Part shown: in pieces, positions 1 to 9,379 of the stretch | Position numbering within the stretch: the first letter of the stretch is position 1 | How the letters are laid out: each line of letters opens with the position of its first letter | Virus record (IMG/VR): IMGVR_UViG_2778261313_000003 | Coordinates: 1-9,379 of that record | Strand: one strand, 5' to 3' | From: a virus | Taxonomy: Duplodnaviria; Heunggongvirae; Uroviricota; Caudoviricetes | DNA: 9,379 nt | Notes under the pieces: model-generated | The model's input: only the letters and a program-made list of their open reading frames with translations | The model's database searches: none | Told to the model about the DNA's origin: nothing | Program-made: the position numbers and the translations under genes

Positions 1-414
1 GATTACAGTATTTGGCATTGCAGCGGACGGCCAGAAGAACGGAACGCCAATAGCTGGAGCACCTTCTCCCAAACCAAGGTTTTCGAGAGCCGTTGGTACT
101 GTGCCGTCCGATTTGATATCACCAAACGGATTCTTGCGGCTCAGGTATTCAACAGCAAACCCCGATCCAAGCAATTCAACAAAACCGGGCAGATCACCAT
201 TATCAAGCACATCCCGTTGCGTTTTATCACTTACAAACTGGGCCAGAGCTGCAGCAATAAAGCTGGCCTGCCGAATAACCTTATTGACTTGCGCACTGGA
301 GGCTTTCCCTGCTGTAAATCCAGATAAAAGCGCGGGCAACGCTTCCCATTCCTCCTGCGATATAACATTGGCATTTCGATCCGTTGCAAACGCTTTAAAG
401 TCATTTTTCGCCAT
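1..414 (-). CDS. phage tail fiber protein, N-terminal 138 codons (gene continues beyond window start)
   Basis: Not in the ORF track because it has no stop in the window. Minus-strand ATG at 412..414 overlaps the stop of the upstream gene (ATGA), preceded by GGGGAG. The frame is open to position 1 ([61 protein letters not shown]...[16 protein letters not shown]). The fiber call rests on position directly after the J and I-position genes and a remembered resemblance to enterobacterial phage fiber N-termini. Confidence 0.5.
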
Positions 415-1094
415 CAGAGTAATACTCCCCATGCTCCTACATCAAAACCACTGATGAATTCGTTATCCATATCAAAACCAAAAAATTTTGAGCCTTCCGA
501 TGGGGTTTCCACCGAAGGTGTTTCAATGCCACCCGCCCATACCCCGGCGGCTTTTACTGTGAGATACCCCTGTTTAATTGCCGCAATTAACTCACGCGAT
601 ACATCTGAAATATCAGTATCAGGAAAGACCCAGACCGATATCGTCATGTCCTGGTTATCGACTATCTGCATTCGCAGTCCGGATCCTGCTGTCGCCGCGT
701 CAAGAATTGCCGGAAGCGAATCATTCCGTCCGTCCCAGTTATTAATCGCAATCTTCGCTTTAAGGATGACACGATAAGTTTCATCGCTGAGGTACATGTA
801 TCCGGAATCAGGATCGTATGGCCCCTGCCATACACCCTGATCATATCCAAGCCCGTCGGTATCCCAGCTGAAATAGACACCTGAGATAGGCTGGCTGACA
901 ACACGGCTACGTCCGACCCACAATCCAAGAATGTCAAGTTGCACACCAACCGCAGAGTCAATATCAAATGCAGTAATCAGCCCTCTGGTGGCAGCCGCAA
1001 CATCAATAAGCGGCCGGGTCATCAGATCAACATGTGCAAGAAATTTAGGTTTGGTGGCGTGGTAGTTCGTGATTAGTTCGGTGTATTTGCTCAT
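414..1094 (-). CDS. baseplate wedge / tail-fiber-attachment protein (P2 gpI / Mu gp48 position)
   Basis: 226-aa ORF whose ATG overlaps the stop of the J-like gene (ATGA) and whose stop overlaps the start of the fiber gene. Family call is from position between baseplate J and the fiber, not from a verified domain hit. Confidence 0.55.
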
Positions 1095-2290
1095 GACTCC
1101 ACCGTTATAACGATATTTCCCGGGGTACAGGACGCAGATTCGTTGTATCTGATATCAATGTTTGATGACGACAAAGCCCCCGGGGATTTCCCAATCGTCA
1201 GTTCCTGAATATCGTAATAGCGTGCATTCCCGCCACTCACCACGCCAAGATTCGCCGGTGAGTAAATGCGACTCAAAAGGACCGAATCACCAATCGTCAG
1301 ACTATTGATATAGTCTGAAATAGCCTGCTGGATCTGCTGCCCTATCTGTGAGGTATAACCCGTAAAAACTTTTAATTTAATCCGGGCATAAACAGGCACA
1401 TCACTGGAACGCGAGAATTTGATTACATGGGGATTGCCGTATTTATCCGGAACCGTAACGGATGTTGTACCGTGAGTGGCTGTCCCCTGGCCTTTATTCC
1501 CTCTGATAGCCTGAGCAATATCCGTCACATCACCGCCATCCACAATTACAGCAACAGAGTGTGGCGGTAACCCGTTACCGTCCTCCGAACCAGTATCGTT
1601 TTCATAGAGTTTGTGGCGGGTTACACCGGTAACATTAGAAACAGCACCATCCAGTGCTTCAAATGGGGTTATTGATGGCAACGCAACACTTTGCGACTGG
1701 CGGATACGTAACTCCGCATCAGTTTCTGCTGGAGTGCCTACAGTAGCTGCAGCAGGATTGGTTACCGAAACCCAGCCACGGGTTGGCGTATTAATTTCAG
1801 TGATAGTTCCAGCCAGCGCCGCCACTGCACCACTGACGGAACATTTTGCGGTCACCATCACTGTACCATCCACGCCGACCACCACTGAAGCAGGCAAACG
1901 CCATATCACATTATTACTGTCTTTCACGCTGCCATTAATGATGGTTGTTCCGGCAGTTCCTGTAAGAAGCAAATCAACCGTAGAATTCGTCGCGCCTTTA
2001 CGTGAAATACCATTTATTTTCACGTTACTGGTCAGTGCAGCCCCATAGCCGGTTGCCGGTGAAAAACAGTTGTAGACAGTTATCGCCATATTATTGGCAT
2101 CATGAATCGCCAGCGCCATCAGAGCCACCATCTGGCCGTCTTTGCTGTCCGGTTCGAGGTAGGCATCACTGCCATAAATCTGCTGAAAATAGCTAATCAG
2201 GGTGCTGAGTATCGTCTGATAATCAGGCGCACTGATCCCCTCCGCGGTTACCTTTGCAGATAAACCGAGAGAATCAAGGTTCAGAGCCAT
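1091..2290 (-). CDS. baseplate J-like protein (gp6/gpJ/Mu gp47 type)
   Basis: 399-aa ORF, translationally coupled on both sides by overlapping start/stop codons. Size, Gly/Thr/Ser-rich composition and position between the W-position and I-position genes match baseplate J proteins. Confidence 0.65.
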   Translation of the reverse strand: MALNLDSLGLSAKVTAEGISAPDYQTILSTLISYFQQIYGSDAYLEPDSKDGQMVALMALAIHDANNMAITVYNCFSPATGYGAALTSNVKINGISRKGATNSTVDLLLTGTAGTTIINGSVKDSNNVIWRLPASVVVGVDGTVMVTAKCSVSGAVAALAGTITEINTPTRGWVSVTNPAAATVGTPAETDAELRIRQSQSVALPSITPFEALDGAVSNVTGVTRHKLYENDTGSEDGNGLPPHSVAVIVDGGDVTDIAQAIRGNKGQGTATHGTTSVTVPDKYGNPHVIKFSRSSDVPVYARIKLKVFTGYTSQIGQQIQQAISDYINSLTIGDSVLLSRIYSPANLGVVSGGNARYYDIQELTIGKSPGALSSSNIDIRYNESASCTPGNIVITVES

Positions 2291-2643
2291 TACGCCTCCG
2301 ATGTAACAGTCGTTATTCCATAAAGAGTGTCGATTTCAGCGGAAAACATGACACGTCGGGTCGTGGTATCCACCGTCGTATTGAAAGAGAGGATTGATTT
2401 AACGCCCTGCGTTTCGAGGATGCGCTTACGGATCGCCAGGTTGTAGGTTTCCGGCTTCTGCTTACCGAGTACGGACTGGATCCACGGAGTCCCCTCGGTG
2501 GTGTCGAGAAACCATTGCCCATACCACAATTCGAATCGAGTTTTTACCGCCTGCGCCACGGCCTCCGGTGAGTTAATCAGCCAAGTGTCATCACCGCTGC
2601 CAAAGGTGTAATCGCCATCGGCGTCTTCACGTCTGTATCGCAT
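2290..2643 (-). CDS. small baseplate protein at the gpW/gp25 position (Mu gp46-like)
   Basis: 117-aa ORF whose ATG overlaps the stop of the V-like gene and whose stop overlaps the ATG of the J-like gene. Call is by synteny; no lysozyme-like motif was verified. Confidence 0.5.
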   Translation of the reverse strand: MRYRREDADGDYTFGSGDDTWLINSPEAVAQAVKTRFELWYGQWFLDTTEGTPWIQSVLGKQKPETYNLAIRKRILETQGVKSILSFNTTVDTTTRRVMFSAEIDTLYGITTVTSEA

Positions 2644-3395
2644 CAGTTTACTCCGTCGGTATTGCTTCCACCGCGCTGAACACCACCATGAGTGTGCGTA
2701 TCATCGATTGGCTTGCCGTTAGCCTTCACGCTACCCAAAAACTCAACAGCACCAGTGATTTTTGAAGCCACACCAGAAACAACAGACCCCACCATGCCTC
2801 CCATCCAGGTTAACAGGCCATGAATGGTTACTTTCTCAGAAAAATCAGCCAGAGGGGCAACCACATCAAGGCCCCCCGGAGCGACAATTTTAATTTTCCT
2901 GGTATCAGGATTAAGCTCAAAATAGGTGCTGCCGTCATCACTACGCAACTGTGTGGCACTGGTATTAATACCGCTAATCTTCCTTGCCTGCGACTGGGGA
3001 CCGACAATACAAAACGCATCCGATAAATCATGCATTCTGTCATCGACCGGCTCCTGTATCCCGCCACTCTGCCACCAGAAATCAATACAACGATCGGCAA
3101 AAATCACCAAACATTCATCACCGGCTTTAACTGGAAACGTTAGCGTACAGCCTCCGCCACGCGGGAATACCACTGGCACATCCACCAGCAATGGGTAATT
3201 TTTGGTAATGCGGTTGCCGTCGTTATCAATTTCAACGTAACGGATAGCAGGCTGTACAACCGCCGTCACCGCATCAGGAGCGAATGACTGAACAATGCCA
3301 GGCAAGGCGACACGGATCTGGTTCTTTGTTGTTTCCCGTTCAGATTTAAATGTTTCGGCAAGGTCGCCGCTGCGGGTCTGGTCAGATACTGCCAT
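2643..3395 (-). CDS. baseplate central spike / assembly protein V-like
   Basis: 250-aa ORF. The N-terminal half contains ...PLLVDVPVVFPRGGG...GDECLVIFADRCIDFWW...RMHDLSDAFCIVG, a pattern I recognise from spike N-terminal (gp138-N / Mu gp45-type) domains. RBS GGAG sits 8 nt upstream of the ATG at 3393..3395. Confidence 0.6.
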   Translation of the reverse strand: MAVSDQTRSGDLAETFKSERETTKNQIRVALPGIVQSFAPDAVTAVVQPAIRYVEIDNDGNRITKNYPLLVDVPVVFPRGGGCTLTFPVKAGDECLVIFADRCIDFWWQSGGIQEPVDDRMHDLSDAFCIVGPQSQARKISGINTSATQLRSDDGSTYFELNPDTRKIKIVAPGGLDVVAPLADFSEKVTIHGLLTWMGGMVGSVVSGVASKITGAVEFLGSVKANGKPIDDTHTHGGVQRGGSNTDGVN

Positions 3396-3411
3396 TTAGT
3401 AGGCTCCAGAA

Positions 3412-3440
3412 AGCAAAAAACCCTCCAAGTGGCGGGTTTG
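3412..3440 (-). terminator. putative rho-independent terminator downstream of the HEPN-like gene
   Basis: Minus-strand RNA would read CCCGCC-ACUU-GGAGGG (five G-C pairs with one internal G/A mismatch, extendable by flanking A-U pairs) followed by UUUUUU. It lies between the stop of the 142-aa gene (3460) and the RBS of the V-like gene (3404..3407). Confidence 0.45.
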
Positions 3441-3459
3441 AATTTTGAGAAATTTCAGC

Positions 3460-3888
3460 TTATGCAGTTAACGAGTCATCACCAATCTTCAGTAATTGAT
3501 TAACGATTGCATCGACCTCTTCCGCATCCAGAATTACACTTCTCGCGGTAATCCGGTTGATTTTCCGCTCAAGCTTGTAATCAGAATTAACACGTTGGGC
3601 ATGCGTCATTTTCAGTTTAACGCCGATTTTCTTTACTGCGTTAACATCAACATCGTTAAGTGCAGCTGCCTCACCACTACAAAAGGCCGTATAGACTCGC
3701 ATGTGAACTCCACCTTTTAGTTTTTCACCATCTTGTGTAGCGGTCGGTACCAGATTGTTGGTGATCCGTAAGACGGAATGGTACATACCATAGTATGCTC
3801 GGCTAATAGCATTTCTCGTCCACATCTCACCGTTTAGAGCCAGGGAATGCTTAGCCAATTCAAGAAAACAGGTATGCTCAACCGACAT
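3460..3888 (-). CDS. HEPN-like domain protein (UPF0332-type), candidate RNase toxin/effector
   Basis: 142-aa ORF with ordered motifs as in classical HEPN/UPF0332 proteins: SRAYYGMYH (res 29-37, Arg30-x6-His37), KGGVHMRVYTAF (58-69), QRVNSDY (98-104) and an acidic C-terminal helix DAEEVDAIVNQLL. The ATG shares one nucleotide with the stop of the upstream 243-aa gene (TAATG). Assignment is from motif recall, not an HMM score. Confidence 0.5.
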   Translation of the reverse strand: MSVEHTCFLELAKHSLALNGEMWTRNAISRAYYGMYHSVLRITNNLVPTATQDGEKLKGGVHMRVYTAFCSGEAAALNDVDVNAVKKIGVKLKMTHAQRVNSDYKLERKINRITARSVILDAEEVDAIVNQLLKIGDDSLTA

Positions 3889-4619
3889 TAGAGTTCCCCG
3901 GCTTCAAAGCATCCGACGCATTCTGAATCCGCAAGCCCCGCAATAATAATCTCATCAGCCAAGGCATTATTCATCTGCGAAAGAAGCACTGGATCGTCTG
4001 TTTTGACTTCAACGAACAGCGTATCAAGTTCTGACATTACATAAAAAGCATGAGCGCCAGCAAGACGAGCGCGGTACTTTTCTGCAACGTTCATCATGAG
4101 CCGCCCAATAGTTTTTAGCTCCTGAGCATGATCTTTTTGGGTATGCAGATAATTGAGCGTGTCATACCATTTGCCCATATCTTCAGGGCGCGGTACTTCC
4201 ATTGCAGTTAGCATCGGCATCACCTTTTCAAGCAAATCGATATCAACCCAGTATGCAGAAATTGTAGCAACCTCAGCCAATATCGTTGGATTAAGTGAAT
4301 CAGATGCTTTCTGAATCATCACATACTGGCGAGCATGCAAACCTAAGTTACGCAGCGCAATCGTATAGTTACAAAAAGAAACTGGATCGTTAGGCGCTAT
4401 TCTCAACCCCCGCTCACAGAGTGAACATCCTTCATCTATTTCACCAAGAACAAGCTTAGCTAAGCCTTCAATTGATAGCCCCTGATAACGTTCAGGTAGT
4501 TTCTTCGCTTCACGAATGATTCGATGGATTTCAAACTCACTCAGAAGGTTTTCACCCTTAGTTAATGAAGGAGTCAGAAGATCTAACAGTTCTCCTGATT
4601 TTGGCTGCGCTAAACTCAT
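3888..4619 (-). CDS. hypothetical protein, first gene of the two-gene cassette (possible antitoxin/sensor partner)
   Basis: 243-aa ORF, start ATG at 4617..4619 preceded by AGGA about 11 nt upstream. Predicted mostly helical with two CxxC motifs (C65-S-L-C68 and C234-V-G-C237). No Walker A and no nucleotidyltransferase G[SG]...DxD motif was seen. By eye the gene is roughly 40-45% GC against roughly 50-60% in flanking tail genes. Confidence 0.6.
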   Translation of the reverse strand: MSLAQPKSGELLDLLTPSLTKGENLLSEFEIHRIIREAKKLPERYQGLSIEGLAKLVLGEIDEGCSLCERGLRIAPNDPVSFCNYTIALRNLGLHARQYVMIQKASDSLNPTILAEVATISAYWVDIDLLEKVMPMLTAMEVPRPEDMGKWYDTLNYLHTQKDHAQELKTIGRLMMNVAEKYRARLAGAHAFYVMSELDTLFVEVKTDDPVLLSQMNNALADEIIIAGLADSECVGCFEAGEL

Positions 4620-4768
4620 GTTTTAGTTATTCCTGGCTTTAATGAAGTAGCATATCGATGGCAATCCACCATCAAAAAGTCAGTGCAGTGTAATCGCTCG
4701 TCTCAAAAAACAACAGTTTTTAGAGCACATTTTGTTGTTTTTCAGGCGTTACGAATTTCAGGTTACCT
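4620..4768 (-). promoter_or_regulatory. intergenic leader of the cassette with a weak sigma70-like promoter candidate
   Basis: 149-bp non-coding gap upstream of the 243-aa gene. On the minus strand the best candidate is TTGATG (plus 4670..4675) and TATGCT (plus 4649..4654) with a 15-nt spacer, which is suboptimal. No strong consensus promoter was found. Confidence 0.25.
4705..4742. repeat. AT-rich inverted repeat (10-11 bp arms, about 17-nt spacer)
   Basis: AAAAAACAACA at 4705..4715 is the exact reverse complement of TGTTGTTTTT(T) at 4733..4742. It lies in the gap between the secreted-protein gene and the cassette. Confidence 0.5.
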
Positions 4769-5110
4769 TCACCCAGCCACTTTTTTACAAGGGAAAGATC
4801 CGATGATTTTCGGCGCATCCATGCTGTTCTGCAGAAGCTGGACATTCAGGAATCGCGTTTCGGTACCAGGGCGACGAATGTATTCAAAGCCGTAGTTGTT
4901 ACCGTCTTTGGCAGGCATAAGCCCCATGTCTACTTTCAAACCATTGGTACCCAGTTCGGTGATTTTTTGAGAGGTAACTCTTTCACCGTTGATAGTCGAT
5001 AACTCGCCCTGGTTTGCAACCATAGTGTAGCCACCGCATTTAACCGTGAAGCCATCCGCCCACGCGCTGCACGCAGAAAAGACAGCTAACAGAAAAATAA
5101 TACCCCTCAT
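4769..5110 (-). CDS. small secreted protein or lipoprotein of unknown function
   Basis: 113-aa ORF with an N-terminal signal peptide (MRGIIFLLAVFSACSAWA; possible lipobox FSAC or signal peptidase I site AWA/DG) and two Cys in the mature part. RBS AGGGGA sits 6 nt upstream of the ATG, which lies 3 nt after the hub gene stop. Confidence 0.6.
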   Translation of the reverse strand: MRGIIFLLAVFSACSAWADGFTVKCGGYTMVANQGELSTINGERVTSQKITELGTNGLKVDMGLMPAKDGNNYGFEYIRRPGTETRFLNVQLLQNSMDAPKIIGSFPCKKVAG

Positions 5111-5113
5111 TGC

Positions 5114-6175
5114 TCATCCCCTTTGCAAAGCCGATCGCGTATACAGATCCGCCGCGCCACGCGCTTCGCACATCATATCCATGTACCACGCCTGGCCCCT
5201 TGTGTCGCCAGTGTACATAATCCCGCGCACAATATAAACGCCATCCGTTGCGATGCTGGCAGGCTGCGATGTGGTGCCGCTTAGCGTGATATTTCCATCC
5301 GTGTTCTGGTCGGTGATCTGACCACCAGCCATCGCAATATCGTTGTTCGACAAGGCGGTACGATACACGGAAGCCTGATCCAGCTGAATAAGTCCGTTAA
5401 CCCGGATGTTCGGATTAATAAGCGCGCGGACGTTTACGCCGTTACCGATAGTCTGCTGCGGCATGCCAATAAGCCCGGTAGCGCTGTTGAGCACAATCGC
5501 TTCATGAACATATTCGTTATTCGCCACCATCTGGCGCTGACCGTCCACGAATTGCCATGTTGCGCCACATTGCCCGGCTACGTTATCCATTAGATGCCGC
5601 GTCATGCCAAAGAGTACCCGCCCCCGGGGGAATACAGTAGCAGGCATTTCAGGCGTCAGGCCTTCGGTCGCGCCTTTGGCTTCGAAGTCTTTCATCAGCG
5701 CACGGTTTACATCAGCGACCGTGTAACCGGCAGCCAGCGTCTGTGAGGTTATACTGGTGGCAAAAGCCAGATCAGTATCTGCTGCCTGAATCAGGACGTA
5801 GGAATCAACCGGACTGTCTTTTCCTGTGACCGAGTAGCGAATTTCACCGCTGAAAATCAGTCCGTAGTTGCGGCCATCACTCTGACCCACGTCCGCCGCG
5901 TCAACTTCCCGCACGGTCCCGACGTCGCTTGCCGACACCTCCGGCGCGATACCGTCGTAACCGGCAATCAGACGCACTTTCGAAAACTCCTGCCCGGTGA
6001 TTCGGTTCACAGTATCTGCCGAGAGGTTATAAATTTTGATAGTCCCTACCCGGGACGCGCTGCTGATGTTGAACCAGTCGATCGTAAAGGTGACTTTAAA
6101 ATCACTTAGCTCAATTCCCTGACCGTTCCCGTCCACAAGCTGCAGCTCGAAATGTCTCATCCAGTTCTGTGACAT
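5114..6175 (-). CDS. putative baseplate hub protein (P2 gpD / Mu gp44 / XkdQ-like)
   Basis: 353-aa ORF with RBS GGAG 5 nt upstream of the ATG. Size, position after the tape measure and small tail genes, and a C-terminal ...DGVYIVRGIMYTGDTRGQAWY... segment resemble hub proteins of simple contractile tails. Identity is inferred. Confidence 0.45.
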   Translation of the reverse strand: MSQNWMRHFELQLVDGNGQGIELSDFKVTFTIDWFNISSASRVGTIKIYNLSADTVNRITGQEFSKVRLIAGYDGIAPEVSASDVGTVREVDAADVGQSDGRNYGLIFSGEIRYSVTGKDSPVDSYVLIQAADTDLAFATSITSQTLAAGYTVADVNRALMKDFEAKGATEGLTPEMPATVFPRGRVLFGMTRHLMDNVAGQCGATWQFVDGQRQMVANNEYVHEAIVLNSATGLIGMPQQTIGNGVNVRALINPNIRVNGLIQLDQASVYRTALSNNDIAMAGGQITDQNTDGNITLSGTTSQPASIATDGVYIVRGIMYTGDTRGQAWYMDMMCEARGAADLYTRSALQRG

Positions 6176-6177
6176 GC

Positions 6178-6480
6178 TTACTCCGTTGATACCAGTAAAT
6201 GGCTGCGACCGCCCAGGTCAGTTTTTGTGGGGTAATCCTGTGTGTTGTCATCACAGACCACCACCAGCTTAAAACCAAGCCCCATACAGGCGTACTGCGC
6301 CAGCAGGTCAGCACCAGTGACGAGAGGAATACCGGAGATTACCGGCTCCCCTCTGTCGTTCTGCAGGTCCATAATCCAGTACAGATCGCGCCATATGATG
6401 CTAATCCGCCAGGTGACACCACCCAGGACGATGCTGAACTGCTGGTTGTCCGCTGTCAGCGGAATTTCCTGAATTGTCAT
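6178..6480 (-). CDS. small phage tail/baseplate-associated protein (unassigned family)
   Basis: 100-aa ORF whose ATG at 6478..6480 overlaps the stop of the upstream 195-aa gene. Its stop lies 2 nt before the hub gene ATG. Confidence 0.5.
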   Translation of the reverse strand: MTIQEIPLTADNQQFSIVLGGVTWRISIIWRDLYWIMDLQNDRGEPVISGIPLVTGADLLAQYACMGLGFKLVVVCDDNTQDYPTKTDLGGRSHLLVSTE

Positions 6481-7067
6481 TAGCCGCCCCCCAGTAATGA
6501 CGCCACGTTACCCGTGATGCTTTTCAGCAGTGAAGTATCTGGAGGTTTTGTGGTTTTGTTGCCGCTGTTCTGTACCGCCGACGTGCTGGCCCCTTCCTTC
6601 ATGTTGGTTTTATCCGCGACGGTAATCTGCTGTGTCCGGGAGATAATGACCTCCCTCAGGGTGAGGACGGCGGACAGGACGTTTTCGGTTGTCTTGTCCG
6701 TCGTCACTTCCAGCGCCCGGATCAACATGTTGCTGTACAGCCGTTTACCGGTTACCACATCGAAGGGGATACGGCTTTCCTGCAGATCCAGTAGCTCCTG
6801 ATACGTCTGCTGAGGACTCAGGCCGAGCAGGCTGGTAGCCGTCAGGTTACTGGCAAAATCCAGCAATGCGCCGCCACCGGCGAAACCAACCTCCATCACC
6901 ACTTCTGACGGTTTTTTATAGGCATGATCAGCGACAGCGGCCCCGACCTCTACCGGATGCTCTGTTATTTCAAGCATATCTGTATGCTTCTCTGAAATAA
7001 CAACACTGGGAACAATCATTCCTATTTTTCTGCTCTGCTGATGAAAAAGTGTAGAGAGAATATCCAC
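6480..7067 (-). CDS. phage tail protein (unassigned family), probable GTG start
   Basis: 195-aa ORF. Codon 1 is GTG (plus 7065..7067), overlapping the tape measure TAG stop and preceded by GAGGGTGGGG. The first internal ATG (codon 17) has no good RBS. Confidence 0.5.
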   Translation of the reverse strand: MDILSTLFHQQSRKIGMIVPSVVISEKHTDMLEITEHPVEVGAAVADHAYKKPSEVVMEVGFAGGGALLDFASNLTATSLLGLSPQQTYQELLDLQESRIPFDVVTGKRLYSNMLIRALEVTTDKTTENVLSAVLTLREVIISRTQQITVADKTNMKEGASTSAVQNSGNKTTKPPDTSLLKSITGNVASLLGGG

Positions 7068-9052
7068 TACCCCACCCTCACCTGATTACTTCGCATGACC
7101 TGAGCATTTGCAGACTGTTGCCGACGTGCAACCTCATTACCGACAGCGTGCGGATCTCCGCCACCGTAAATATGGTAGGTATTTTGCTGGTTAACCTCTG
7201 TCACTTTGCCACTAATTCCCGCCACGGCAGCCTTATTAATCAGCTCTCGAGAATAGATATTTCTTCCATTCTCATGCTGGATAATGCTGCTCATCAATGC
7301 TGACATGGTTTGCGGATCGCTCATATTCAGGGCAGCCCGGGGATCCACTCCCAGTCGTTGCGATACAGCCCTGATATACGCGGTTGTGTTGTTATTATCA
7401 GACGCAGGTGCCCAGGTAGAGATAATTTTCTCCACACTGTTTATTCCCCGTCCGGCGTACAGCATTAACTGACGAGCAAGAGCCCGTAATCCATCAAAAG
7501 CGGTTTCAAATCTGGCAAATCGCCCGCCCGGTCGTTCAAGAGAAGCCCCCGCCTGACCAGCAAAATTAAGGTTTCCCGGATTGTTATTCCGTTCTCCTCG
7601 CTTCGTAGCCTGTGCATGTTGTTCCGGCTCAGCACCTGGAATATCTGACTGAATATTTGCGCCTTTTACGGTATGAGGATTACGACCAAAATCGGTATCA
7701 ATGCCAAGCCAGCGCAATGAATCTCCAATATTTTGTTTCGTGTAATCCCAGGATGACTTCGCACTGGCACCAATATTTTCGCGATCGGAGTACAAATAAG
7801 CAGCATAAGCCATCCAGCCTTTTAACCATGGCGGTACCGGCAAACCAGATATTTTCCCGAAAGCCCCCAGAACCCTGGATACCCAAACACCCGCGATGAA
7901 TGTACCGAGGATTTCCAGTGCATTTTGCCAGCCGCCAACACCATCTTTTAGTTCCAGAAGGTGATCACGAAGCCAGGTGATCGCATCCTTCGCTTTATCT
8001 ATTGCCGGTTGCCATTTTTCCCAGTCGATAAGACTGTTACCGCCTTCTTTCCATGTTTTGTAGTCTTCCCACAAGAGACCGAGAGCCACGATCAGACCGG
8101 TAATCAGCCCTATAGGTGACATCCAGAAAGTAGAGTTAAGTATCCGCATGGCGACAACCAGACCGCCGATAACCTCTATCAGGGTTTTCGTTTCGGCATC
8201 CAGTTTCCCCCACCACTCGATGATATCTCCGACACCATCGACTATCCGAAATGCTACCCGCCCGACTATCTCACCCAGCCAGAGGATCCCCTTTATGACC
8301 TTTGTGATGGTGACTTCAATTTTGGGAAAATTTTCAATTATCTTTTTGCGCAGGTTATCAATCTGCCCCGCCAGTCCGTCCGCAAGATTCGATCCGATTT
8401 TGTCCCGCGCCATCCCGGCCATTTCACCGAGCGATTTCAGCGAGGTCATAAACCGGTTTGACGATAAGGCAGCCTGATCGGCATTAAATCCGATCGCTTT
8501 CACCATTTCTGAATACTGAGCGCTGAACTGCCCCACTCCGCGACGCATAGCCATCAGGGTATTTTCGTCAATGCCCAGCATCTGCGCATACTGGTTAGCC
8601 CGGTAATACGGCATGCTGCTGAGTTTCTGTCCAACGCCCGTAAAGATAGCAGCCATGTCACGCATGTTACCGCGGGCATCACGGGTCTGTACGCCCAGGC
8701 GATTCAGAAAGCCTTCTGCTCCGGGATTGTTACGAATAAACCGGGAGAGGCTTTCCAGAGAAGATCGCGCAGCGTCCACACTGCCGCCAACCTGCGAAAC
8801 CGCATAGCCAATAGACTGAATTCCCTGGACCGTCGCGCCGGTGCGCTGTGACGCCCAGTAAAGATTATCCAGGCCGGAGGCGATCTTAGCCGTGAAGGCC
8901 ACCACGGACAGCGCAGCTCCTTCAACAGCCAGCCCCATTTTGATGACATTTGCAGTTGTACCGGCGAGGACAGAACCGAACTTTTTCGCTCCTGCATCAT
9001 CCACACTGAAGCCAAGCGAGACGAGGAAATCTTTAATAGTTTCAGCGTTCAT
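7067..9052 (-). CDS. phage tail tape measure protein
   Basis: Long ORF (661 aa from the ATG at 9050..9052, which has GGAG 8 nt upstream; the track's TTG start at 9073 adds 7 codons). Helical, Ala/Gly-rich N-terminal half, a central hydrophobic stretch (LIEVIGGLVVAMRILNSTFWMSPIGLITGLIVALGLLW) and a C-terminal segment containing NNPGNL ... WAP ... HENG. It sits at the head of the baseplate gene block. Confidence 0.75.
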   Translation of the reverse strand: MNAETIKDFLVSLGFSVDDAGAKKFGSVLAGTTANVIKMGLAVEGAALSVVAFTAKIASGLDNLYWASQRTGATVQGIQSIGYAVSQVGGSVDAARSSLESLSRFIRNNPGAEGFLNRLGVQTRDARGNMRDMAAIFTGVGQKLSSMPYYRANQYAQMLGIDENTLMAMRRGVGQFSAQYSEMVKAIGFNADQAALSSNRFMTSLKSLGEMAGMARDKIGSNLADGLAGQIDNLRKKIIENFPKIEVTITKVIKGILWLGEIVGRVAFRIVDGVGDIIEWWGKLDAETKTLIEVIGGLVVAMRILNSTFWMSPIGLITGLIVALGLLWEDYKTWKEGGNSLIDWEKWQPAIDKAKDAITWLRDHLLELKDGVGGWQNALEILGTFIAGVWVSRVLGAFGKISGLPVPPWLKGWMAYAAYLYSDRENIGASAKSSWDYTKQNIGDSLRWLGIDTDFGRNPHTVKGANIQSDIPGAEPEQHAQATKRGERNNNPGNLNFAGQAGASLERPGGRFARFETAFDGLRALARQLMLYAGRGINSVEKIISTWAPASDNNNTTAYIRAVSQRLGVDPRAALNMSDPQTMSALMSSIIQHENGRNIYSRELINKAAVAGISGKVTEVNQQNTYHIYGGGDPHAVGNEVARRQQSANAQVMRSNQVRVG

Positions 9053-9142
9053 TATCCTCTCTCCATTTCTCAATGCGCCGCTGGTTATCCGCTTTTACCG
9101 CCAGATGGTCATTCAAGAGAGCAATGTCATACAAATCGACAG
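9042..9142 (-). pseudogene. 3' remnant of the gene upstream of the tape measure gene, severed by the IS insertion (possibly tail assembly chaperone)
   Basis: Only one minus-strand frame is open from the IS boundary (9142) to a TGA at 9042..9044 (VDLYDIALLNDHLAVKADNQRRIEKWREDNER*), ending 11 nt inside the tape measure gene. The other two frames stop within 5 to 10 codons. The frame has no start codon in the window. Confidence 0.3.
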
Positions 9143-9379
9143 TGTAGATTCAATCTGTCAATGCAACACCCCTTTCAATTATCTCTTTCGGTGTTTTGAA
9201 CTTCAGTGTCTTTCTCGGTCTGTTGTTTAGCTGAGCAGCAACCAGATCTAGTTCATGTTGAGTATATTGGGCAAGACATGTCTTTTTAGGAAAGTACTGC
9301 CGAATTAGCCCATTTGTGTTCTCATTTGTTCCCCGCTGCCAAGGACTCTGAGGATCGCAGAAGTAAACTTTAACGCCGG
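9143..9379 (-). mobile_element. IS30-family insertion sequence, right end (element continues beyond window)
   Basis: The terminal sequence TGTAGATTCAATCTGTCAATGCAAC begins at 9143. The adjacent minus-strand frame encodes a transposase C-terminus carrying the IS30-family signature around the catalytic Glu (PWQRGTNENTNGLIRQYFPK). Confidence 0.8.
9150..9379 (-). CDS. IS30-family transposase, C-terminal 75 codons (5' part outside window)
   Basis: Minus-strand translation ...VKVYFCDPQSPWQRGTNENTNGLIRQYFPKKTCLAQYTQHELDLVAAQLNNRPRKTLKFKTPKEIIERGVALTD*, with the stop at 9150..9152 inside the terminal inverted repeat. Confidence 0.8.
   Translation of the reverse strand, partial: GVKVYFCDPQSPWQRGTNENTNGLIRQYFPKKTCLAQYTQHELDLVAAQLNNRPRKTLKFKTPKEIIERGVALTD

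Follow-up and report, generated by a model that had tools for sequence, protein, structure and literature searches.

A TPR-like/HEPN gene pair as AT-rich cargo between the baseplate hub and spike genes of an Escherichia coli prophage

Why does a short interval rich in A and T (AT-rich) lie in the middle of a phage tail operon, and what do its genes do there? The question is raised by a 9,379-nucleotide stretch of Caudoviricetes DNA (IMG/VR record IMGVR_UViG_2778261313_000003, positions 1 to 9,379; hereafter the window), whose genes are all on the minus strand and make up the distal part of a contractile-tail operon. The host phage is a Brunovirus/SEN34-like temperate myovirus of E. coli. Between the gene for the baseplate hub, with its small neighbor sp113, and the gene for the gpV-type spike lie a leader and a two-gene cassette encoding a 243-residue TPR-like protein and a 142-residue protein of predicted HEPN fold. 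An original prediction, made from the sequence alone, had described the interval 3396-4768 as AT-rich relative to the tail genes, equipped with a private leader and terminator, and horizontally acquired. Comparison with relatives shows that the cassette is accessory and exchanged between phage backbones, and we conclude that positions 3440-4778 are very probably the present occupant of a recombination hotspot, a moron slot, between hub/sp113 and the gpV spike.

Composition and the hub-to-spike slot

The predicted compositional step is present, though modest. The guanine-plus-cytosine (GC) content is 43.2% across 3396-4768 and 44.0% across the cassette coding sequences (3460-4619), compared with 49.5% in the left flank (1-3395), 51.5% in the right flank (4769-9379), and 49.5% in the entire window, with a concordant sliding profile. 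Just 0.17% of all 1373-nt segments are lower in GC, and the minimum of 42.9% starts at 3437, overlapping the interval. The hand counts of 60-nt samples behind the prediction were representative, since 60-nt blocks average 43.5% inside (range 35-53%) versus 50.6% outside (range 35-68%; Mann-Whitney p = 4e-6). GC at third codon positions (GC3) is 0.39 in the cassette and 0.53 in the structural genes (Fisher p = 8.8e-7). Three observations limit what this step can say about foreign DNA: the contrast is no larger than 6-8 points; GC3 in the genes to the left (gpV, gpJ, and DUF2612) is 0.45-0.48, near that of the cassette; and synonymous-codon heterogeneity between cassette and structural genes, tested family by family, is not significant (chi2 52.5, 41 degrees of freedom, p = 0.11). 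Of the expected differences in GC and codon usage, those in GC and GC3 therefore stand, while that in overall synonymous codon usage does not. GC at second codon positions (GC2) is likewise low in the cassette (0.36), indicating that amino-acid composition contributes to the AT-richness. Composition by itself would be weak evidence of foreign origin, and the comparative data carry the case.

With gpV as the query, 160 loci encoding gpV relatives were fetched, and the interval between gpV and the hub, which is collinear across all relatives and served as the anchor, was measured in 156 of them; the loci are phylogenetically related, and all counts from this survey are descriptive rather than counts of independent events. 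The interval ranges from 8 nt to 2826 nt and contains 54 gene architectures. Seventeen loci are empty, each with an interval below 130 nt, and the emptiest relatives have only 8-28 nt (8 nt in Sodalis and Izhakiella; 26 nt in Arsenophonus); in more distant relatives the hub lies directly against gpV. Every interval of at least 300 nt (139 of 139) is lower in GC than its flanks, with means of 42.5% and 52.1%, revealing that AT-richness is a trait of all slot cargo and not solely of this cassette, and thereby explaining the compositional step of the window.

The limits of the exchanged segment were located by the comparison of junctions that the prediction had called for. Blastn searches against the phages vB_EcoM-606R2, SEN34, and YP3 and a large number of IMG/VR prophages placed the breakpoints at the same positions every time: the window is similar to them from its left end as far as 3439, and again from 4767-4781 onward. 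Between these collinear flanks 606R2, SEN34, YP3, and many E. coli prophages carry unrelated genes. In some 100 E. coli genomes the shared part of the interval is confined to its first 43-56 nt, from 3396 to about 3440, after which other genes follow, among them a YafO-family toxin pair, a DUF4282 protein, and a different two-gene pair. The downstream boundary is thus set at 3439/3440, where similarity to relatives bearing other cargo begins, and at the upstream boundary homology stops within the last 3-4 codons of sp113. A repeat search over 3200-5200 detected no direct or inverted repeats flanking the cassette, and integrase-type sites are likewise absent. There is accordingly no sign of transposition or site-specific insertion, and homologous recombination in the two conserved anchors is the most economical mechanism: cargo would be swapped among phages by recombination at the 3' end of sp113 and at the terminator plus the 5' end of gpV. 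The predicted horizontal acquisition is therefore upheld insofar as the DNA is horizontally exchanged, relatives being collinear with unrelated genes in between, but the event is an allele swap at a pre-existing slot, as the 54 architectures in 156 loci attest, and not a one-off insertion.

The other alleles of the slot are of varied kinds (examples are L105, L106, L129, L163, L004, L123, and L138 among loci L001-L167). They include a match to the defense gene type PD-Lambda-1 (E 3e-82), the PADLOC candidate PDC-S42 (E 2e-36), the YafO toxin pair, and DUF4282 membrane proteins; two further alleles appear Phd/Doc-like by eye, from sequence alone and with no domain search run on them, and many slot genes are unannotated. 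In 606R2 the cargo includes a second HEPN-like protein, of 170 residues, with the motif RNNLFH. Pairs consisting of a partner gene and a HEPN gene are the commonest cargo type.

In position and composition the interval fits the definition of a moron, a concept of Juhala and Hendrix reviewed, along with its definition and gene 15 in the tail operon of HK97, in PMC3594210. It is additional DNA separating genes that in relatives adjoin each other or are differently spaced, its GC is unlike that of its neighbors, a predicted terminator lies downstream, and the site is a tail operon. Unlike the morons described, it showed no consensus promoter, its terminator is a property of the slot, and it carries a two-gene HEPN module instead of a single membrane protein. 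The slot likewise resembles the defense hotspots of P2-like phages and P4 satellites (Rousset et al. 2022, PMC9122126), where a fixed backbone position contains many alternative AT-rich gene sets, mostly of defense or toxin type, exchanged by recombination in conserved flanks; here, however, the phages are Brunovirus/SEN34-like myoviruses and the position is that between baseplate hub and spike. A limited literature search on SEN34/Brunovirus and related topics yielded no description of this slot.

The leader and the terminator, both of which had been predicted to be private to the cassette, behave differently. The leader (4620-4768) indeed moves together with the cassette: in the carriers from Citrobacter braakii and Pseudocitrobacter, identity is 85-88% for the leader but just 61-63% for the adjacent sp113. 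It contains two hairpins (4745-4702, A/T-rich, and 4675-4655) and an AGGA ribosome-binding site. Compared with shuffled sequences, the hairpin folds score z values of -1.3 to -1.7, which are not significant, and alignment with the Salmonella copy revealed no compensatory changes; a structured leader is therefore not claimed. An Rfam scan of the entire window found no RNA family.

The terminator, in contrast, is not private. Nearly every cargo allele ends in AACCCGCC-loop-GGCGGGTTTTTT-GCTTTCTGGAGCCTACTAAATG, in which the loop alone varies and GCTTTCTGGAGCCTACTAAATG is the gpV 5' untranslated region conserved in almost all loci. The element AACCCGCC-loop-GGCGGGTTTTTT is a predicted canonical intrinsic terminator, and the predicted ribosome-binding site and start codon of gpV come next. 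More than 15 cargo types share this stem, T-run, and ribosome-binding site, indicating that the terminator belongs to the slot and not to the cassette. It is absent from the two sp113-only loci inspected (L062 and L066), where a different terminator directly follows sp113, and from at least one cargo-bearing locus (L003, of YP3). In the window the sequence is AAACCCGCC-ACTT-GGAGGG-TTTTTT (3439-3415), with a C-to-A change at 3424 that makes the 3' arm GGAGGG in place of GGCGGG. This mismatch is missing from all 12 fetched loci that have an identical or nearly identical hairpin, all eight other close copies of the cassette among them. It lowers the predicted stability to -10.0 from -15.7 kcal/mol, and a strict consensus terminator scan misses the hairpin. 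The change might increase read-through into the spike gene, or might reflect a sequencing error.

Of 5426 complete E. coli genomes, 33 contain the cassette, and a search with the gpV gene and its upstream terminator region (2643-3439) matches 315 E. coli genomes, so that some 10% of the E. coli genomes bearing this backbone have it. The pair is also found in this slot in Salmonella, at 69% amino-acid identity and in more than 1000 assemblies, and likewise in Citrobacter, in Pseudocitrobacter, and, at 45% identity, in Ewingella. A 40%-identical pair in Klebsiella variicola (L171-L173, 6001-7148) belongs to a siphovirus-type prophage, in which it lies in the gap separating the tail chaperone gene (YdaY family) from the tape-measure gene, the very slot that the gp15 moron occupies in HK97 (PMC3594210). 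There the pair is followed by a gene for a 206-residue protein with a weak zinc-ribbon match. The cassette has a GC content of 41-44% in each host phage, while the flanks there have 48-55%. Synonymous divergence (dS) from the Citrobacter copy is 0.22 for the 243-residue gene, 0.57 for the 142-residue gene, 0.48 for the hub, 1.27 for sp113, and 1.61 for gpV; both cassette genes thus lie well below sp113 and gpV, and only the 243-residue gene lies below the hub. The ratio of nonsynonymous to synonymous divergence (dN/dS) is 0.07-0.14 for both cassette genes, which are under strong purifying selection. In a search of a plasmid collection, the last 128 nt of the HEPN gene (3460-3587) were found to be 100% identical to the 310-kb Salmonella conjugative plasmid CP049309.1, for which the PLSDB table lists no gene at that place; this fragment was the sole match, the remainder of the cassette being absent from the plasmid.

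The TPR-like/HEPN pair

The two cassette genes are small, co-directional, and translationally coupled, the HEPN start codon overlapping the partner stop codon in a TAATG at 3888. The Salmonella, Klebsiella, and Ewingella copies have either a 1-4-nt overlap or direct abutment of the two genes. Throughout the slot survey the HEPN family always comes last, preceded by either the 243-residue family (12 loci) or a family of 256-266 residues (26 loci), and the latter is a remote homologue of the former over its full length (hhalign probability 97%, E 6e-11). Co-occurrence of the HEPN family with one or other of these partner families was recorded in 36 loci, and the pairing of TPR-like and HEPN genes is obligate. 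As a separate observation, phage YP3 (L003, 3670-4470) and locus L109 encode a cargo protein of 266-273 residues that resembles the 243-residue family by its length and a C-terminal 'AMNLSL' motif and has no HEPN partner; it looks like a further relative of the TPR-like family.

The 243-residue protein is modeled with confidence (pLDDT 90.5): residues 7-181 form ten helices, and a small beta-beta-alpha-beta domain comes after them. TPR proteins are its best matches by structure as well as by profile, and the arrangement is that of TPR-like tandem repeats. Two proteins of uncultured siphoviruses share the entire fold. A search of 1.84 billion representative proteins returned only some 60-70 full-length relatives (240-275 residues), the other matches being generic TPR proteins aligned over residues 53-110. 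The idea that the C-terminal domain is a degenerate minimal nucleotidyltransferase (MNT) antitoxin was considered and rejected, as it has neither a nucleotidyltransferase motif nor a match.

The 142-residue protein is assigned to the HEPN superfamily by its predicted helical-bundle fold and by a variant motif of AF0298 type. Weak matches are to PADLOC HEPN_IX (E 0.0036) and to the PDB profile 2hsb (E 0.035); a HEPN member of the sister cassettes, those with the 256-266-residue partner, matches PF05168 at E 0.0023, under the cut-off, and several homologues bear the JGI label 'UPF0332 family'. Alignment of 17 divergent members revealed twelve invariant residues (E21, R25, S29, Y32, Y33, H37, H62, L92, R99, D103, Y104, and L106), and R30 is Arg in 16 of the 17 and Lys in one. 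R99-x3-D103-Y104 (R-V-N-S-D-Y) takes the place of the canonical Rx4-6H motif, and H62 is located at the end of the helix 2-3 insert in the model. This combination matches the variant published for the AF0298-like 'HEPN-T' and AbiV proteins, in which Asp replaces His and for which an alternative active site was proposed that a second conserved His, in the helix 2-3 insert, would complete (Anantharaman et al. 2013, PMC3710099; PDB 2hsb). The cassette protein differs from the AF0298/UPF0332 group in that sequence identity is 18%, the PF05168 threshold is missed, and its partner is not a minimal nucleotidyltransferase.

What the pair may do

These features suggest a model in which the HEPN protein would be a latent RNase toxin held inactive by its TPR-like partner, which possibly also acts as a sensor. 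A cue such as infection by another phage would cause the partner to release the HEPN protein, which would then cleave RNA and arrest the cell. The outcome would be a toxin-antitoxin or abortive-infection defense that benefits the lysogen and its prophage. A conflict-system role is supported by the partner-first, coupled anatomy with a HEPN effector and by the toxin and defense genes found as other alleles of the slot. We regard this toxin/defense mechanism as evenly poised between right and wrong; the explanation taken as a whole, moron hotspot and toxin/defense function jointly, we hold to be somewhat more probable than its negation.

Several findings weigh against the proposed function. Neither cassette protein has any match above threshold in Pfam, NCBIfam, or PADLOC, and the HEPN assignment rests on the predicted structure together with the two weak matches given above. 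The canonical Rx4-6H motif is absent from the 142-residue protein, and for the AF0298-type variant site catalysis has so far only been predicted (PMC3710099). Features of a nucleotidyltransferase or of a DNA-binding protein are lacking in the 243-residue protein. A scan of the coding (minus) strand in 3200-5300 for the sigma-70 consensus detected no promoter, though weak or non-consensus sites could have escaped it; the genes may for this reason be expressed with the late operon only, which fits protection of a lysogen less well. Finally, literature on the accessions, on UPF0332 and HEPN, and on two-gene TPR and HEPN systems, incompletely covered, yielded no description or test of the pair.

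Searches of defense collections placed the pair in no known system. PADLOC-DB v2 gave the HEPN_IX match as the best for the cassette proteins, then PDC-M71B (E 0.037), with no system match; PHROGs matches are to families of 'unknown function' only; and the DefensePredictor supplements contain no sequence matching the pair. The two-gene HEPN system DS-28 of DefensePredictor was set aside as different, its HEPN protein having a canonical RNxxxH motif. In the HepT/MntA (HEPN-MNT) type VII toxin-antitoxin system, as here, a small HEPN protein is encoded directly downstream of, and coupled to, its partner gene, but the cassette has no adjacent minimal nucleotidyltransferase antitoxin and no Rx4HxY motif, and neutralization by AMPylation is therefore not expected. 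A functional analogy is possible with HepS of Gifsy-1 (PMC13043305) and Tha of S. aureus prophages (PMC11087260), HEPN effectors encoded by prophages for which arrest of infection through RNA cleavage has been proposed or shown, both being abortive-infection proteins activated by phage tail proteins. They differ from the pair in being single-protein systems with a canonical Rx4-6H, and membership of the 142-residue protein in their group was rejected, since its motif differs and no sequence similarity was detected. A tail-protein trigger for the cassette pair would be pure speculation.

Among the alternatives, the pair could be a pure addiction module that acts by post-segregational killing, stabilizing the prophage or spreading selfishly, with no anti-phage role. 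We consider this unlikely, even though the architecture is typical of type II modules (the partner encoded first, stop and start codons that overlap, and proteins of small size) and the slot alleles include the classical toxin YafO as well as the two Phd/Doc-like ones recognized by eye. The partner, fully structured and TPR-like, is bigger than the toxin, it has none of the DNA-binding or labile disordered features usual in type II antitoxins, and the slot also houses PD-Lambda-1, a validated defense gene type; addiction and defense are in any case not mutually exclusive roles.

It is less probable still that the pair serves the lytic cycle of the phage itself and is expressed with the late tail operon only, with the TPR-like protein as, for example, an assembly chaperone or adaptor, as TPR proteins frequently are, and the HEPN protein as an RNA-binding, RNA-processing, or counter-defense factor. 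The missing consensus promoter in the leader, the orientation of the cassette along the late operon that contains it, and the finding of every homologue of examined context among clustered tail genes, including in another type of phage, would all agree with such a role. Against it stand the presence of the cassette in only a tenth or so of the backbone-bearing E. coli genomes, with relatives that have nothing in its place or carry unrelated cargo including toxins and defense genes, and the leaders of the sister cassettes, which contain promoter-like motifs (TTGACG-17/18-nt-CACAAT or TAGAAT) read by eye and unscored. That the two genes are ancestral to the operon, and AT-rich owing to amino-acid composition or weak expression, agrees with their low GC2 and unexceptional synonymous codon usage but is refuted by the comparative data, namely the empty sites and 54 alternative occupants at the position, the sharp similarity boundaries at 3439 and about 4778, and the same cassette in a siphovirus-type prophage, leaving it scarcely credible.

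The operon around the slot and what the pair implies

The features of the window are collected in Table 1. Its closest deposited relatives are Escherichia phage vB_EcoM-606R2 and related phages (98% identity across the common parts), Yersinia phage YP3, and Salmonella phage SEN34 (genus Brunovirus). In E. coli strain WAT the same prophage adjoins torT, and the two cassette genes are both annotated 'hypothetical protein'.

Table 1. Features of the tail operon in the window, in the order of transcription.
Feature	Coordinates	Strand	Remarks
Tape-measure protein	9073-7067	minus	first gene listed in transcription order
Dit-like protein	7067-6480	minus	
Baseplate plug	6480-6178	minus	
Baseplate hub, 353 residues	5114..6175	minus	weak Pfam E217_GP41 match; upstream anchor of the cargo slot
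sp113, 113-residue signal-peptide protein	4769..5110	minus	phrog_3443, E 8e-48
Leader, 149 nt, 37.6% GC	4620..4768	minus	
243-residue TPR-like helical-repeat protein with small C-terminal beta-beta-alpha-beta domain (predicted)	3888..4619	minus	
142-residue protein of predicted HEPN fold, AF0298/UPF0332 type	3460..3888	minus	
Cassette-specific 3' tail, HEPN stop codon to slot terminator	3440..3459	minus	from sequence comparison
Terminator-like hairpin and T6	3415..3439	minus	
gpV 5' untranslated region, ribosome-binding site GGAG at 3407-3404	3396..3414	minus	conserved flank
gpV-type baseplate spike	2643..3395	minus	Pfam N-terminal spike domain, E 3.6e-43, and Apex motif; downstream anchor
gpW-like sheath initiator	2643-2290	minus	
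Baseplate J (gpJ)	2290-1091	minus	
DUF2612 wedge protein	1094-414	minus	

The neighbor of the cassette, sp113, itself resembles an accessory gene. It is the first gene past the hub in 115 of the 156 loci, and loci in which the hub abuts gpV lack it. Recombination of its alleles is independent of the cassette: in L011 and L012 sp113 is 71-76% identical to that of the window while the cassette is 100% identical, the value in L011, an IMG/VR prophage, being 76%. It looks like an older, nearly fixed moron, and is possibly a periplasmic superinfection-exclusion factor.

Mosaicism was also observed elsewhere in the window. Within the tape-measure gene, nucleotide similarity to relatives that are otherwise 97-99% identical breaks down at about 7632-8366, and the upstream part (8005-9142) is just 80-90% identical to relatives, the pattern of a mosaic, recombining segment. 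Bases 1-91 are 96% identical to the side-tail-fiber genes of the lambdoid phages mEp213 and mEp043, and bases 9250-9377 are 99% identical to phage phi456; these matches to unrelated phages at the window ends are signs of mosaicism beyond the cassette. In 606R2 the hub (L001, 4800-5864) is annotated as two coding sequences, of 139 and 212 residues, which jointly correspond to the 353-residue hub of the window; this would reflect a frameshift, a sequencing error, or a truly split gene.

The compositional step that raised the question is in itself ordinary, marking a classical moron in a prophage tail operon, and morons are well known. What the analysis adds is the hub-to-spike slot, of which the limited literature search found no description, and the uncharacterized TPR-like/HEPN pair, which is absent from current domain and defense catalogues. 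More tentatively, and with the odds in our judgment against it, the pair of a TPR-like protein and an AF0298-type HEPN protein, together with its sister family, might constitute an undescribed two-gene abortive-infection family confined almost entirely to moron slots in the tail operons of enterobacterial prophages; its TPR-like subunit would recognize a structural protein of an incoming phage and unleash the R-x3-D-Y plus His HEPN RNase. If this were true, the Brunovirus-like hub-to-spike slot would amount to an unexplored reservoir of defense genes, comprising over 50 architectures that are for the most part unannotated. The pair also bears on whether the 'Asp-for-His' HEPN variant is a real nuclease, and the slot, with its 54 arrangements, is a hunting ground for new defense or superinfection-exclusion functions.

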